DNA of 64,000 nt from an uncultured Planctomycetia bacterium (GCA_964430735.1 CAYSFB010000002.1:7390-71389); one strand, 5' to 3'; counted from the first letter of the stretch, positions 59,701 to 62,396 are shown. Numbers and translations are program-made. Notes: generated by a model from the sequence alone, not told the origin.

Positions 59701-62396
59701 GGACTCGATACGGCGTGCCCGAACAGGAATTTTTGACGCCGGTACTCCCGGGTCAAGTCCCCGAGCTGATTCCATTTGCTGAGCGCCGCCCTCAAATCAT
59801 CGGCTTTGACCTTGGTCTGATCGACGAAGTAACTGCGCCGGGCATTCGTGGATAAGAGCAGGCTGGACGCATCCGCTCCGGACCCGCCGTTCAGCGCGAC
59901 CAGCGGTCTGTCGTCCGGATTCACCACGCGCTTCATCGCCATCGCATGTCCGACGTACACCGCGTCCAACAACCCCGCGTCGATCGGACGGAGATCCAGC
60001 CCCAGCGCATCCGCCAGCTGCATCCGCTCGATCACCCCGGACTCCCTCCCCAACTCCGCGATCAAGGCGTTCTTCCGCGCTTTTTCCCCGCCGCGGCCCG
60101 CCAGCCGCGCGCCGTCAGAGCGGGTCCGGCGGTAGGCCTCGAGGTCGATCTGATAACCGAGAAGGCGGCCGGACGTGTCGCGAAGGATGTGGCGGACAGA
60201 CTGCGGATTTTGACCGATGAACTTTTCCTGGATCCCCTGAGCCTCAGGCGAAGCGTCGATCGAGATGTGGGGGTACATGGCGCTGCGTCCGATGTTCATG
60301 AACCTGGTGCCAAAGAACCGCAACCGGTCCAGCAGACGCTTCATCAGCGCGGTGCCGAGACCCATGCCGCGGTATTCGGGATAAAGGTAGATGCCGTTGG
60401 CGTACGCCTGCCCCGTTCCAAGCGGCATAAAATAAAAGTAGGAATAGAGCCCGACCGGCCGTCCCCTGTCACTCAGAATCAACGCATCGATGAGCGTGAG
60501 GATGTCGTGGCCGGACCAGCTCTCCAGCGCCATTTCCGGCGTCATGTCTTTTGCGCCGAGACGCGCCAGAGCATCGGTCAAAAGCCGCAGTAGCTGCCCG
60601 CGGTCCCAGATTCCGTCATTCCGGCGGTCGGTTTTTTTCTCGATCGTCTCGCGGTACGAATGAATCGTGAACCGCTCTTCCTCCGCCAGCCGCGCGCCCT
60701 GGCGCAGACGATCGAGGCCCATCAGCAAAGACGGGTCGCTCCAAACGGCCCCGATCAGCGGATCGAGACCCTTCGACAAACGATTGCCGGCCAGCAGCGC
60801 CTTGGAAATATGGTTGTCGGCAACCGCGGCGGCCGACGTGCGGATCGAGAGGCGAAGGGGCGTGAGAAGGATTTTTTCGTAAGCGTCGCGGTCCGTTTCG
60901 GTCCTGATCTGAGGACTCAATACGGCCCAGCCGTAGCCTTCGCGCGTCATGAGCTCCTTGAGATGTTCGGTGTGATAACCGCCGGCGACGAGGATCGCGG
61001 CGTTGTCGCCCGTCTGATCAAGCGCGCGGCGGGCGTTGGCGGCAAAGGCGCGGTCGCGCAGGTTCACGAGGGAGTAAAAAGCTCGGACGGCGGGCCAGGC
61101 GCGGTCGAATGAAGGTTTTTCGGGCAGGCGTAGATCGCGGATGCCGAGAGCGGAGGCCATTTCTTTTAAAAATCCCGTCCACGCTTCGGCCGCGAAGTCC
61201 TTTCGATTGGACCGGAGGAGCGCGAATTCACGCGAGCTCAGTCTGAGGTCGTGCGCCTTTTGAACGAGCTTGAGATAAATCCCCAAGACCGCGATCCGGC
61301 GGGCGTCCGGATCCGGAAGCAGTTCGCGGTAACACTGCGCTTCGAGCACTTCCGCCTCGGTGAGCACAGCATCCCAATCCAAGTCTTTAAAGGAATCCAG
61401 ATATTCGGCATACCGGGACAAATGCGGATACCTTTCCGGATGCGCGGCCAGGCCCAGAAGACGACCGATCAAATTCTGAAGCTCGGCCGGCTGCGAAGTC
61501 CTGCCAATGCGGTCTGCGAGGACTGCCGACTCCTCCGCCGCGTCGCCGGCCCGTAATTGGGACATCAGCATTTCCTGCTCGCGGTGGATGGATCCAAAAT
61601 CGACCCGTTTTTCGGCTGCTTGAAGCTTTTTCAGTTCGCGCAAGGCCGGATAACCGTCCAGCTTAACGCCGGCTTTTTCGGCCAGCTCCTGCAACCGTTT
61701 CAAAGACCCGGGGTCGGATCCGGGCGTCGCGGCCTTTGCCTCGGATTCATAACGCCGCAGCGTTTCGGGATACAGTCGGTCCTTGAAGGCGTCGAGCGCC
61801 GCAAGCGCCTGTCGCAGATCCCTCTCCGCCGCGGGCCTCAGCTCCGCCACGCGGGCATACGCCAACAGCGCGGCGCGATAATGCGGACCGTTTTCGATGC
61901 CGATAAAATCGGCCGGCGTCTGCTCCGTCAGGCTCAAGTGCTCAGGGCCGCTCAGGACGCCCTGCCGCAACAGCTTGTCCGCGCCGATCTTGAGGTCGCG
62001 CGGCGGAACGAGCGGGGCGAGCGCGTCCAAATTGGCGCGCCGGTCTCCGCCTTCCAGCAGCACGGTTCGGATGCCGTAAGCTTGGGTCAATGACCGGATG
62101 GCGGAAGCGATGTTTTTTTGGCCGTCATAATTGGCGTGGGCGTCTTCGATCAGGATGACGAGCCGGCCGTTGGTTCCAGGGCGGGCGTCGCGGAAACGAA
62201 CAGCGGAGACAGGAGCATCTATTTGGGAAGGTGCGAGCAAAAGATCTTGAAGCGATGGCTCGGAGGCGGATTGGGCCGAAGCGGCCGGGGCTGCGGAGAC
62301 CGGACCAACCTGAGCTGCCGCCAGACATACTTCATGCGCTGATAAAAGTATGGCCAAAGTGAGCGCAGTCCATCTGAGCAAAAAACGTCTCGGCAA
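50796..62396 (-). CDS. Giant secreted multi-domain protein (3,866 aa): signal peptide, Tiki/TraB/GumN-like domain, GNAT, NHL beta-propeller, HATPase_c, class-I methyltransferase and several unassigned modules separated by GARLA junctions
   Basis: Single ORF. TTG start at 62394..62396, preceded by the SD GGAGA. Signal peptide MPRRFLLRWTALTLAILLSAHEVCLAAAQV. Ten GARLA junctions are present, nine of them encoded by the identical 14-mer. Domains are listed separately. Confidence 0.85.
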   Translation of the reverse strand: MPRRFLLRWTALTLAILLSAHEVCLAAAQVGPVSAAPAASAQSASEPSLQDLLLAPSQIDAPVSAVRFRDARPGTNGRLVILIEDAHANYDGQKNIASAIRSLTQAYGIRTVLLEGGDRRANLDALAPLVPPRDLKIGADKLLRQGVLSGPEHLSLTEQTPADFIGIENGPHYRAALLAYARVAELRPAAERDLRQALAALDAFKDRLYPETLRRYESEAKAATPGSDPGSLKRLQELAEKAGVKLDGYPALRELKKLQAAEKRVDFGSIHREQEMLMSQLRAGDAAEESAVLADRIGRTSQPAELQNLIGRLLGLAAHPERYPHLSRYAEYLDSFKDLDWDAVLTEAEVLEAQCYRELLPDPDARRIAVLGIYLKLVQKAHDLRLSSREFALLRSNRKDFAAEAWTGFLKEMASALGIRDLRLPEKPSFDRAWPAVRAFYSLVNLRDRAFAANARRALDQTGDNAAILVAGGYHTEHLKELMTREGYGWAVLSPQIRTETDRDAYEKILLTPLRLSIRTSAAAVADNHISKALLAGNRLSKGLDPLIGAVWSDPSLLMGLDRLRQGARLAEEERFTIHSYRETIEKKTDRRNDGIWDRGQLLRLLTDALARLGAKDMTPEMALESWSGHDILTLIDALILSDRGRPVGLYSYFYFMPLGTGQAYANGIYLYPEYRGMGLGTALMKRLLDRLRFFGTRFMNIGRSAMYPHISIDASPEAQGIQEKFIGQNPQSVRHILRDTSGRLLGYQIDLEAYRRTRSDGARLAGRGGEKARKNALIAELGRESGVIERMQLADALGLDLRPIDAGLLDAVYVGHAMAMKRVVNPDDRPLVALNGGSGADASSLLLSTNARRSYFVDQTKVKADDLRAALSKWNQLGDLTREYRRQKFLFGHAVSSPAGLISPAQKFLGELQAIGVRKDSIRIHSDSGAATVTFRWAYPGLREKRYSITLIQANVVESELYPDVLKKALARKIDIYYQRAPWDMASWYPRFLPELAASVREGGFLMTDDTNYDGSVYESRSFQAPLQDLGFASERSFSDELRRYTEAGFKARRNIFQAHHRTDDELHYGFDLALRQRRSAGARLASVGRDDGFKPGDFVKLGPDSPTGLILSRQASAGSPPVYTVRWRRDGRFEQRVRADQNGLVAIPAKEALREWASVSPTALDEQARKPGEAFTETLSRQHRRLRRYLADSRDRHGPPLKRYELFIHFATDGEARFLNRVLKTQNETIDLYTRLFPGETPEFVTALALADWYRSQIARKERGHRSMSRFGFARVLLAKLYKRRHHFVAGSRRPDNMPSDVRRIVHWVFSDGRSILAGPVRKTEFVRFRRMAGLENAHDALSDERIASMQKDAELMLRMYSFDLALKTLAAITERQGTLPPLPVRTPVPPVDPQIVIKNLSVRTLEILGRRLQTADTRQITLSGPQFPYWQAYLKMGVGPEVIAQALDLARRDKAIVSHISIKKKQIHIRMLGPHKKSKSELIKIQKRLEAGVPELEKLPPVLPAAPAIKAKDLALSEAVARLTGQNTAAMPTIEDLSLVLRKKAYRTVEPLGRIDRGRVFLFTVDPATSFMVNVTPQSMSVDAVDPDRPGELRRLNTYQPEGIKAVYNRTLKKLEDSVREARRADGARLADVSNEEVKTTLMGRLKSAFTTAIAFVTRHRDGSRHGVPDFSGQEGDSILNETSVKHPSIRRAFWQGRTYLIEEEPGGEYLIGYKFANGDDPGGKKLISQYQNMLAARRIGIPDAPEPLAEVGKLNDIIGKYPTNLNPEHVLKFRAKKTSRQYLTRRYTDIDPALRGKALDEFSGKAVRDLSLGMLHGRIHTSLTPLTHSEAFGEKWFWNVDPIGEVQNLQESMRYVNLRRSGIDDYEHFDAVNENTNLDFAMGQEMVEWLIAVAYAGFINGLTRAQIENILMNGYGIFYALTGIGTDPEPLRPVLRQFLKKFQTEWQGDRLEVPSATRSDTSLKHLVDLTESLLQALRSSSAYGAVKERWLKAPDGYRSDELISDPAGRLIRKSWRDGTIKVLGSDLRVLREIRAEESPEAVTAGTDGRIWTVSVGGLTAYDAALRKTGGIIGRFHPSIESDPGNRIVLADVASGDVLVYGPDLDLIQRISNPFLGGIQTVPVWALNDEGRLAVRTSNSDSADHSMAIYDIVTGRKLHQMQADLPIDVIAADREGNWITGGGGRIAIYDPELKKTRLLSLMNSVTAINVDPNGLILVGDEHSNRVLVFDPELKLKSEIRSYGYNHRLILYDDAFSYQGEVSGLRNPYRIVESGAYGLFVIEKTKNLALIRRMPAVGARLAQGLNYFVRLRETIAADPERGIAEYAKFVVTQTRSGLSDYLELLRGLDRLAGSDHAVRNSEAIERMRAGLEVKEDVRSEASLKSVSGFLKDFSNTSIYDQPLRQIQLQPELLASDEVQSVLVQISALRRWMWRLSEHLEILLKDTSGSYSGIIDPSIDAGRLLEEAIERERGRHPEHHRPVEIETDFENGLPSMTGDRVRLLNAFRELIRNAVFASIVREGRSYFSYRSRSRILVKAQFMAETQHVRVTIEDNGVGMKPEDIPDIFKFAYSRDRSEQGVYFGGRGIGMPTAVETIAEHRGLLQIDSDPSWGTRLEIDLPVDFAAGARLAGTGGSEGFEQLLRDSEIERERLFRRLGKEAPHAAKVEITPEMVAAVQPVEVARQILPRLITAFRRSHPEADRVSGPAFLIAGFAMPVLAASVWLHPMFAVTALPLVRAIKEVKRRAELKAMLQVLEEMRVELESSEPGDPDAAESIADLAEWAFVLLNSSSAQLRAVAHQSLYAIAQIAGEVKPIFDQRVRELNEWHRLWMPHARSVYFDPSLALDPTLMGGRPGRSESPSVYQLSPAARSGARLAQSGWKRILPDWLKRRATDVAPMRVVPAAPLHDLTEAEADRLAREVLKKIVPDYGDPESQFEPVHVMTFGPGRTVPIVLSREGFRVPGHSHLAPYAHVIRVGPLIFVNLTEGFSGNGRDSLAVRREMDRLIRLLGDVYEKHSGNILLIHPSSFAAMEMKKYPGMSMSMFTAVMIGQLLDDWRQGRLPEGWWLDVGSGEDAVLSRILMRMNRKAVLVEKEERGLEVSRAYLWKESWNAPGRGVNPDYLELPGDVTAEEFDGKLETAMHVIGAPLTGIVADMGPWQIYGPIDRLDQRPDDHPDAAISRIASNHPQVRRVIHGGYTTDPGFVDEWAHRIAMQQNRTRYQHSGFQVDQRDPFAGAEAKNREFLRVLTAERPAESPLEGARLANQGQAGAGIVDVRAELIRAAVSAADPDYDWRSEASARASNLLESVLSDEGRQLLLLNLDRLKLKSARDGSTDAVRLLMTSAMYLLERGGSADPEEMAAVGRLVDRYNSDVQSGRWYESAGPLSLPLLLVLNLSYFVDANDKRLIEGYQRLSRNLVLLPGDAGLEAVATDLLFGAAHLNHKRDFFDIHMYMPSLRRALEAQTNNPALRGRLHQAIGRFLAAVQPAGLLRGRLIWLEDRQYYKDRKDAWKPGYEWFADRADRLIQILTEQEGMLRNAPSNRMPNAWRLGLLFTVEAAALANPHLSASLDRVLMDPDAHPEDFDRLLQELQKHDARFGDRSDKSIKNWIHRFRPSAVKPVQKAILDLRALQESKSGARLAGWPDSFMQFFGLSGWKPVAGALAYASEAEGERALSQLSDLLKGAEAGSERRVLVRLERGVLAIDPARRFEQSEVLAAAAARLAVRGIYLELSQVENFTGRVPAPDAADYSEAVIALNAADLKPGAVGFVSDPNPDVIRAVLAGARLARWEGGAASLAADPICTSVLSTLFGVELPVAILAKVQRVPQEAAEREVLNLHKLRPMRRAWEVFQQILTAIRLAAISA
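52950..53250 (-). other. Domain: class-I SAM methyltransferase motif I region in giant protein 2
   Basis: WWLDVGSGEDAVLSRIL is at 53161..53220 and matches the LDVGSGxG motif I. Confidence 0.45.
54560..55000 (-). other. Domain: histidine-kinase-like ATPase (HATPase_c) in giant protein 2
   Basis: N-box LIRNAVFAS, G1 box IEDNGVGM (about 54716..54740), G2 box GGRGIGM. No obvious His-phosphotransfer H-box was recognised upstream. Confidence 0.65.
55650..56280 (-). other. Domain: NHL/YVTN-type beta-propeller repeats in giant protein 2
   Basis: There are at least five ~40-aa blades (DGRIWTVSVGG, RIVLADVASGDVLVYGPD, RLAVRTSNSDSADHSMAIYD, NWITGGGGRIAIYDP, LILVGDEHSNRVLVFDP). Confidence 0.55.
60130..60640 (-). 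other. Domain: GNAT acetyltransferase module of giant protein 2
   Basis: GIYLYPEYRGMGLGTALMKRLLD (motif A, R/Q-x-x-G-x-G/A) is at 60355..60390. The module is bounded by GARLA junctions at 60685 and 60100. Confidence 0.6.
60940..62200 (-). other. Domain: Tiki/TraB/GumN-like N-terminal domain of giant protein 2 (paralogous to 20070..21250)
   Basis: GTNGRLVILIEDAHANYDGQ is at about 62110..62190, and ILVAGGYHTEHLKELMTREGYGWAV is at about 60960..61040. It aligns residue-for-residue with the corresponding blocks of giant protein 1. Confidence 0.4.

Follow-up and report, generated by a model that had tools for sequence, protein, structure and literature searches.

Candidatus Omnitrophota are uncultured, ultra-small and probably host-dependent bacteria, and their very long proteins are a recognised puzzle. 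Reshuffling by recombination is known from the effector repertoires of MARTX toxins, and in the polymorphic toxins CdiA (VENN) and Rhs (PxxxxDPxGL) a short motif borders the constant and variable parts, its DNA being able to serve as a recombination junction. In a preprint on the giant proteins of Omnitrophota, the N-terminal regions are described as having signal peptides and, generally, no identifiable domain (10.1101/2023.11.21.568195). The subject of the present work is a stretch of 64,000 nucleotides labelled as an uncultured Planctomycetia bacterium (GCA_964430735.1 CAYSFB010000002.1:7390-71389, hereafter the window) and, within it, two giant genes, gA and gC, which belong to a protein family defined by a shared N-terminal domain (the head). 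gA and gC are paralogues with a plan in four parts: a signal-peptide-like start, a head with a predicted TIKI fold, a series of modules bounded by the pentapeptide GARLA, and a tail. The window contains three giant open reading frames (ORFs), every one on the minus strand:

6794..21484, minus strand: gA, 4896-aa ORF, family member (gene 1 of the original prediction)
30377..39916, minus strand: gB, 3179-aa ORF, without the head
50796..62396, minus strand: gC, 3866-aa ORF, family member with putative signal peptide, head, 8 GARLA-delimited modules and tail (gene 2 of the original prediction)

The original prediction held that the two genes are paralogues at their 5' ends, that they carry entirely different enzyme sets downstream, and that the common part is a secretion or processing head of a modular delivery system. 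In a BLASTP alignment of 483 columns (E 2e-68), gA residues 74-506 and gC residues 56-537 are 35% identical, with 50% positives, an identity well above background, which establishes the paralogy; the four peptide strings quoted in its favour were all found, at gA residues 85 and 435 and at gC residues 66 and 466. The similarity does span about 500 N-terminal residues, as proposed, but its lower edge lies at about 60786 and not at 60940. No other high-scoring segment pair (HSP) at E<1e-3 connected gA with gC, or either of them with gB. As a source of the resemblance, chance, low complexity or an artefact of assembly is refuted and has practically no probability left, given this E value, the thousands of homologues described below, and the presence of the gA sequence on three contigs, and of the gC sequence on two, in the assembly collection.

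An exhaustive search with a family profile built from the two heads reached 8,095 protein clusters (50% identity) when the threshold was E<=1e-3, and 2,139 when it was E<=1e-30, with bodies that are largely unrelated, so that the idea of a common head with variable cargo extends far beyond the window. This very large family has no entry in Pfam or NCBIfam and is apparently undescribed. The best 150 of the profile matches (P0001-P0150) are referred to here as representatives; P0001 is gC, identical but for its called start, and P0002 is gA, starting at the TTG at 21445. Their heads start at a median residue of 46 (10th-90th percentile 26-58), and the proteins are 426-7,894 aa long. A word-index protein search with the gC head and an 18-sequence head alignment as queries gave no match, a blank that is attributed to a limitation of the index and not to biology, because the exhaustive profile search finds thousands of relatives. 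In a survey that took a single genome for each GTDB species, 336 loci were confirmed, and locus details were taken from 80 of these, all in metagenome-assembled genomes titled Candidatus Omnitrophota/Omnitrophica or labelled “uncultured Planctomycetia” or “Eisenbacteria”. The family is thus near-confined to Candidatus Omnitrophota. Many genomes carry several copies (up to 12 loci per genome among the 80), some in tandem on one contig. Two family genes per contig are seen for L007/L010 (JBLINS010000007.1), L018/L022 (CAYSKO010000008.1) and L059/L079 (JBLINS010000019.1), some of them about 5 kb apart; the family is arranged in tandem arrays as well as dispersed, and in the window it is dispersed. 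A viral origin was considered and rejected, there being no relative in IMG/VR viral contigs.

Searches of the head against Pfam, NCBIfam and PDB sequences yielded no usable match. The sole Pfam trace is PF04187 (ChaN, of the TIKI clan) at the GGYH strand of gC (E 0.061, 13.7 bits versus a cut-off of 27.7), and gA gave none. No family of the TIKI clan (TraB_PrgY_gumN, Erythro_esterase, Cofac_haem_bdg) is matched at the Pfam gathering score, and for this reason the head is regarded as a new family within the fold class and not as an existing Pfam family. An AlphaFold2 model of gC residues 51-540, based on the 18-sequence alignment, has a mean local confidence (pLDDT) of 87 and a predicted template modelling score (pTM) of 0.82. 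The modelled core is alpha/beta and is formed by the first ~120 and the last ~60 residues, with ~290 helical residues inserted between them; it possesses the alpha/beta core, central parallel beta-sheet and flanking helices by which TIKI proteins are recognised, and its top structural neighbours are all hydrolases or hydrolase relatives. The model therefore presents the head (~470 aa) as a new sequence family of the TIKI/TraB/erythromycin-esterase/RRSP fold. Tiki and RRSP represent site-specific peptidases within this fold and Ere its esterases, while ChaN and PMT C2 are members without enzyme function. Tiki is reported to cut Wnt3a at a Leu-Ala bond, a point that is given no weight as evidence here.

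The structural study of RRSP defines the superfamily by this core together with a set of two histidines and two glutamates (E3900-x-H3902, E3930 and H4030) and a basic residue, R4001 (PMC6254334). Across 140 aligned heads, the invariant positions include D85, H87, E115, R447, D448, G472, G473 and H475 (gC numbering). The spacing is 28 residues from H87 to E115 and also 28 from R447 to H475, compared with 28 and 29 in RRSP; the first acidic residue is Asp in the head versus Glu in RRSP. The head's active site looks like a working one, with a putative activity and substrate. The corresponding features are:

60786..62231, minus strand: gC head, residues 56-537, predicted TIKI-superfamily alpha/beta core split by the ~290-aa helical insertion
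62136..62144, minus strand: gC D85-A-H87, matching the E-x-H of RRSP, invariant in the 140 heads
62052..62054, minus strand: gC E115, 28 residues past H87, as from H3902 to E3930 in RRSP
61053..61058, minus strand: gC R447-D448, in the place of the basic residue that TIKI enzymes conserve
60972..60983, minus strand: gC G472-G-Y-H475, putative second catalytic His by comparison with RRSP, at the place of the faint PF04187 match
19967..21265, minus strand: gA head, residues 74-506
21170-21178, minus strand: gA D103-x-H105, predicted catalytic equivalent of gC D85-A-H87
21086-21088, minus strand: gA E133, predicted catalytic equivalent of gC E115
20234-20239, minus strand: gA R416-D417, equivalent of gC R447-D448
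20153-20164, minus strand: gA GGYH444, equivalent of gC GGYH475

The head of some members appears to contain short in-frame insertions that look similar to one another (“...ASEAKQS...”, “...SLRGA.RRGNL...”, in the rows with VIASEAKQSQIASSPSAPRND and SLRGARSSNEAIS). In uncultured bacteria, similar peptides come from small repeat elements that are translated. There are none in the genes of the window.

Ahead of the head, a start resembling a signal peptide (basic residues, then a hydrophobic run closed by an A-x-A-like end) is present in 108 of the 121 members with complete N-termini, and gA and gC have it. For gA the start is likely the TTG at 21445, which has AGGGAAGGGA as its Shine-Dalgarno sequence. 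Hydrophobic segments number one in gA and three in gC.

62313..62396, minus strand: gC signal-peptide-like N-terminus, residues 1-28, MPRRFLLRWTALTLAILLSAHEVCLAAA; TTG start, with GGAG 9 nt upstream
21356..21445, minus strand: gA signal-peptide-like N-terminus, MPGFFSKKITLKATAAILLPVWLLAEAAQA, followed by AP

This arrangement does not support the notion of a secretion head, given that the export signal appears to be a separate segment in front of it, and the head itself, with its catalytic set intact and no match to a known secretion domain, has the predicted fold of a TIKI-superfamily hydrolase. The gC segment opens with PRRFLLR (62375-62393, residues 2-8), which is twin-arginine-like, and relatives among P0003-P0007 read KRFFLK or SRFFLR. 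A twin-arginine translocation (Tat) signal was set aside for gC, since the RR pair is not conserved and close relatives have KR or a single R. In many signal peptides of the family, an acidic residue late in the hydrophobic stretch is followed by A-A-P.

The bodies that follow the head are punctuated by a short motif, the pentapeptide G-A-R-[L/M]-[A/S], counted here as [GSA]-A-R-[LM]-[AS] and compared with shuffled sequences. It occurs 12 times in gA (0.28 in shuffles) and 11 times in gC (0.29), and has no copy in gB or in the 11,570 aa of other window genes; the 150 representatives hold 614 copies versus 12 in shuffles. An unbiased list of enriched 5-mers in the family bodies was topped by GARMA (323 times) and GARLA (155 times). 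Head-bearing ORFs of the 80 Omnitrophota loci carry 1.38 copies per 1,000 aa and the other ORFs 0.045, and the few motif-bearing ORFs that lack the head look like pieces of neighbouring family genes. Conservation is limited to the five residues of the motif; the flanks are locally polar, S/A being mildly preferred at -1 and bulky residues becoming locally less frequent. The first copy lies at most 200 residues past the last conserved motif of the head in 85 of 98 proteins, mostly at 30-120 residues. None of the 23 copies in gA and gC falls within a Pfam match, and several stand 5-47 residues from a domain edge. A full-text literature search for “GARLA” returned surnames only. The copies that bound head and modules are:

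60684..60698, minus strand: gC GARLA, aa 567, the first copy, closing the head module
60099..60113, minus strand: gC GARLA, aa 762, after the GNAT module
59136..59150, minus strand: gC GARLA, aa 1083
57495..57509, minus strand: gC GARLA, aa 1630
55485..55499, minus strand: gC GARLA, aa 2300
54501..54515, minus strand: gC GARLA, aa 2628, 5 residues past the end of HATPase_c
53763..53777, minus strand: gC GARLA, aa 2874
52602..52616, minus strand: gC GARLA, aa 3261
19970..19984, minus strand: gA AARMA, aa 501
19898..19912, minus strand: gA AARMA, aa 525
18227..18241, minus strand: gA AARLA, aa 1082
16511..16525, minus strand: gA GARLA, aa 1654, before the CsrA-like module
16037..16051, minus strand: gA GARLA, aa 1812, before the alpha/beta-hydrolase module
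14843..14857, minus strand: gA AARLA, aa 2210, exact start of the GH77 cassette common to P0005
12296..12310, minus strand: gA GARLA, aa 3059, end of the GH77 cassette common to P0005
11597..11611, minus strand: gA GARLA, aa 3292, after the methyltransferase module
9749..9763, minus strand: gA AARLA, aa 3908, 10 residues before the HPr-like module
9350..9364, minus strand: gA GARLA, aa 4041, 12 residues before the GDPD module

When the segments between motifs were scanned singly, those in which domains matched contained one kind each (gene coordinates in residues, all on the minus strand):

gC 572-761: GNAT
gC 1635-2299: NHL, weak match (E 1.3e-3)
gC 2305-2627: HATPase_c at the C-terminal end, histidine-kinase-core-like
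gA 1659-1811 (window 16052-16510): CsrA-like, 28.7 bits, above the Pfam cut-off when scanned alone
gA 1817-2209: alpha/beta hydrolase (FrsA-like)
gA 2215-3058: GH77
gA 3064-3291: methyltransferase
gA 3913-4040 (window 9365-9748): HPr-like, 26.2 bits, above the Pfam cut-off when scanned alone
gA 4046-4573: GDPD

The enzyme sets named in the original prediction are in large part recovered, namely the FrsA-like esterase of alpha/beta-hydrolase type, GH77 and GDPD in gA and GNAT and HATPase_c in gC, but the “propeller” of gC comes down to the weak NHL-repeat match. CsrA and HPr are complete small cytoplasmic regulators and an odd cargo on an apparently exported protein. Thirteen further members that were sampled are largely unannotated in sequence and add domains of the FHA, protein kinase, HD, RelA/SpoT and M23 peptidase types. 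Pfam and NCBIfam scans of gA and gC detected no SecA, no RTX or other repeat and no Peptidase_C80, and neither protein gave internal self-similarity HSPs.

The chains close with a tail, which in both genes starts at a GARLA copy:

50799..51485, minus strand: gC tail, aa 3638-3866, ending AIRLAAISA-COOH
6797..7765, minus strand: gA tail, aa 4574-4896, ending GARLSEISA-COOH
6809-6823, minus strand: gA terminal motif, within the GARLSEISA end

The C-termini of gA and gC are each a variant of the motif plus four residues. The statement that the two bodies are entirely different is accordingly right as regards alignment, with no HSP beyond the head, but it overlooks the pentapeptide that recurs in both and the -ISA with which both end. 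In the representatives, the C-terminal residue is Ala in 118 of 150 and the last two residues are -SA or -AA in 106; those without an Ala-type end are short and probably fragments. The last 170-300 residues of the family form several sequence clusters, some linked by hhalign, with no such link between the gA and gC tail clusters; searches of both tails against Pfam, NCBIfam and PDB sequences gave no usable match, and a tail model found no informative PDB neighbour. In that model (AlphaFold2), the GARLA at gC 3638 sits in a linker with pLDDT <50. Family members share a conserved tail domain ending x-[S/A]-A-COOH.

Comparison of close relatives indicates that modules have been exchanged between paralogues as cassettes, with breakpoints on the motif. 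gC and its closest relative, P0003, are 66% identical in the head and 53% in the tail and have no match in ~3,000 aa of body. Residues 2210-3063 of gA (the GH77 block) are 66% identical to residues 4336-5194 of P0005, and in both proteins the block begins on a motif and stops 4 residues into the next one. A block of 1,108 residues, likewise bounded by motifs, is 82% identical between P0006 (4674-5774) and P0007 (2322-3421), where it occupies different positions; these two proteins have further blocks in common, in differing order. Among 59 HSPs, 46% of the starts and 40% of the ends lie at most 15 residues from a motif, versus 7% at random positions. The motif is also conserved as DNA: an identical coding-strand 15-mer, GGCGCGCGGCTGGCG, encodes 7 of the 10 GARLA copies of gC, where codon usage predicts p=0.014 per copy, and an eighth identical copy lies in gA:

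51030-51044, 51471-51485, 52602-52616, 53763-53777, 59136-59150, 60099-60113 and 60684-60698, minus strand: GGCGCGCGGCTGGCG in gC
7751-7765, minus strand: GGCGCGCGGCTGGCG in gA

Over the 80 loci, 69% of motifs have CGG or AGG as Arg codon (background 33%) and 72% have a Leu/Met codon with TG at its end, a bias towards G at the third position, while all six Arg codons and most Leu codons are used at the motif across loci. Because all of these codons still occur, the motif peptide itself is held to be under selection. A purely DNA-level origin as the sole explanation was rejected on the six Arg codons and the many Leu/Met codons found across genomes. Homology-guided exchange at the junctions would fit this bias; the 15-mer identity may also stem from gene conversion or translational pausing.

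The giant genes of the window stand among chromosomal housekeeping neighbours: ribH, ribBA, truA, asd, isopropylmalate/isocitrate dehydrogenase and thiG; an Opp-type ABC importer and secG-tpi-pgk-gap; and fmt-def, a pseudouridine synthase, a NUDIX protein, an acyl-CoA dehydrogenase, a DsbA-like protein and an agmatine deiminase. The DsbA-like thioredoxin lies 3' of gC, and 3' of gA come MazE/PIN and then ThiG. The importer follows secG-tpi-pgk-gap, and an independent contig (L081) has the same arrangement. The remaining giant, gB, has neither the head nor the GARLA motif and is a TpsA-type exoprotein, with a two-partner secretion (TPS) domain (PF05860) at residues 32-274 and a weak PTSIIA_gutA-like match at residues 2172-2222; a Pfam scan found no PF05860 match in gA or gC. 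No secretion genes adjoin gA or gC within the window, where the sole secretion pair (TpsA/TpsB) is that of gB.

~6057-6712, minus strand: MazE-antitoxin/PIN-toxin pair lying past the gA end and before thiG, as called on the identical contig L081
21608-26687, minus strand: full set of an Opp/Dpp-type peptide ABC importer (SBP_bac_5, two permeases and two ATPases), on the gA strand and immediately upstream of gA
41466-43235, plus strand: TpsB transporter of the ShlB/FhaC type, divergent from and near gB

Taken together, these observations suggest a four-part exported family of secreted polyproteins in which the head cuts the chain at GARLA, a reading to which we assign a probability of about 0.4. 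The Sec-type signal-peptide-like start would export the chain; the head would be a site-specific endopeptidase, cutting the exported chain where GARLA forms the junctions, either in cis or in trans; the genes would thus encode secreted polyproteins releasing many separate enzymes, and the DNA of the motif would double as a homology patch for the exchange of cassettes. A processing role for the head, as originally predicted, is plausible by analogy, many TIKI enzymes being site-specific peptidases, and the junction motif is sharp. The released modules may act in the cytoplasm of another cell, because they are of cytoplasmic type (HPr, CsrA, kinase ATPase, GNAT, S-adenosylmethionine (SAM) methyltransferase, MalQ) and would miss cofactors or partners in the periplasm. 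The modular delivery system is a hypothesis: such modules on an apparently exported chain would fit delivery into another cell. A second support for action in another cell is the predatory or parasitic lifestyle proposed for Omnitrophota (10.1101/2023.11.21.568195). The broadest version, in which the whole phylum makes Sec-exported effector polyproteins, a TIKI-type protease cuts them at GARLA, the resulting proteins act in a host or prey cell, and the 15-nt motif DNA enables swaps among paralogues, we consider unlikely.

Several points weigh against this polyprotein reading. Cleavage at GARLA is something we infer; the fold, holding esterases and non-enzymes as it does, is no proof of a peptidase, and in the aligned heads the first acidic residue is Asp where a Glu would be looked for. 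Motif-like copies stand within the folded gC tail (aa 3721 and 3785), where cutting would be destructive, and the strict motif is missing in 43 of the 150 representatives, 25 of them longer than 1,400 aa, which show a weaker enrichment of variants such as G[ST]R.. and ARMT. The export of ATP-, SAM- and acetyl-CoA-dependent modules is paradoxical without a further delivery step, and no delivery machinery adjoins gA or gC within the window, whose own phylum would follow from that of its relatives.

The same data can be read in other ways. The head may be an autonomous esterase or peptidase with an external or host substrate, or may itself be an effector, in which case GARLA would be a flexible junction and recombination patch in a chain that stays uncut, like beads on a string. 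That erythromycin esterases belong to the TIKI fold, and that RRSP and HopBA1 are themselves delivered effectors, makes this a possibility to be taken seriously, and breakpoints on the motif together with its codon-level conservation would give it a DNA-level role without proteolysis, as the motif-like copies inside the folded tail would also allow. It is nevertheless doubtful, since distant genomes retain the peptide while encoding it with six Arg and many Leu/Met codons, which argues for selection on the peptide; a recombination patch alone would not need G-A-R-[LM]-[AS] with unconstrained flanks, and would leave unexplained the constant first place of the head and the motif that mostly follows it 30-120 aa later. 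The original prediction itself amounts to the proposal that the head serves secretion, targeting or retention, for instance by being recognised by an outer-membrane secretion machine or as an envelope anchor, with variable cargo. It would account for a head that is always N-terminal, directly after the signal peptide, on otherwise unrelated bodies, and giant genes of Omnitrophota are reported beside loci resembling type II secretion systems (T2SS) or type IV pili (T4P) (10.1101/2023.11.21.568195). Against this, Pfam, NCBIfam and PDB searches of the head yielded no known secretion domain; its top structural neighbours are hydrolases or their relatives, and its invariant catalytic residues would be needless in a pure targeting domain; and gA and gC lack flanking secretion genes, the TpsA/TpsB pair of the window belonging to the head-less gB. 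We regard this proposal as quite improbable.

A further alternative separates the motif from the head altogether: GARLA would be recognised by a separate trans-acting factor (for instance a different protease, a modifying enzyme, or a docking partner of which the tail is an example), and the role of the head would be unrelated. Nothing links head and motif physically, GARLA is sharply defined as a short linear motif and lies in polar linkers, and its variant at the extreme C-terminus hints at a binding function. Such a factor, however, would have to co-occur strictly with the family, the motif being essentially restricted to head-bearing ORFs, and no candidate for it was seen in the flanks examined, which makes this alternative very unlikely.

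The findings matter beyond the window because they give three handles on thousands of proteins, namely a defining head whose catalytic site is predicted, a pentapeptide by which the chains can be divided into modules, and a conserved tail. Annotation module by module and the tracing of cassette exchange are now feasible, and the idea of a processed polyprotein becomes directly testable. If cleavage were confirmed, this would be the first large bacterial polyprotein family with a fixed cleavage signal, and a new specificity among TIKI proteases; if the phylum-wide effector reading were also true, the system would stand as bacterial counterpart to viral polyproteins and to MARTX toxins, with combinatorial diversification built in.

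As regards known systems, the fold class closest to the head is the TIKI superfamily (Tiki1/2, TraB/PrgY, GumN, ChaN, EreA/B/C, Bcr135/136, RRSP of MARTX and HopBA1). The head differs from its families in having no gathering-score match, a ~290-aa helical insertion that splits the core, Asp as first acidic residue, and an N-terminal position on modular proteins of several thousand residues. The “giant genes” of Omnitrophota (West-Roberts et al. 2023 preprint; 2026 complete-genome preprint) come from the same phylum, and their “Module 1” overlaps in Pfam content (methyltransferase, HATPase, GNAT). The proteins of these studies are 10-147 thousand residues (kaa) long, with many transmembrane helices and SecA-like domains, and giants as defined by West-Roberts et al. 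exceed 10-30 kaa and have a T2SS-like locus upstream, whereas gA and gC have 3.9-4.9 kaa, essentially one N-terminal hydrophobic segment and no SecA; within a limited literature coverage, keyword searches of papers on these giant genes turned up neither the head nor the GARLA motif nor the tail. Two-partner secretion exoproteins (TpsA) are represented in the window by gB with its TpsB partner, the TPS domain being missing from gA and gC.

In polymorphic toxins (CdiA/Rhs), a single C-terminal toxin is swapped and an immunity gene is paired with it, whereas the present family has many internal cassettes between a constant head and tail, a conserved C-terminus, no immunity-like partner seen, and a cargo of metabolic and regulatory enzymes with no recognisable toxins. 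Among viral polyproteins, those that have a leader or N-terminal protease resemble the family in that self-contained proteins lie in one ORF, separated by a short, sharp site, with a protease-like domain in the chain; unlike them, the family is cellular and chromosomal, stands among housekeeping genes and is absent from viral contigs, and its cleavage would be a matter of prediction. MARTX toxins differ from it in their RTX/glycine-rich repeats and C80 cysteine protease domain (neither detected in the family) and in their type I secretion, in place of which the family has a putative N-terminal signal peptide, a protease-like domain that is N-terminal and a junction that is a fixed pentapeptide. 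Even so, MARTX is the closest known architecture, with giant proteins, conserved ends, a variable middle of unrelated effector enzymes, a built-in protease and inter-effector junctions. The resemblance is one of architecture only, and one of the MARTX effectors, RRSP, has the same fold as that predicted for the family head (PMC6254334).

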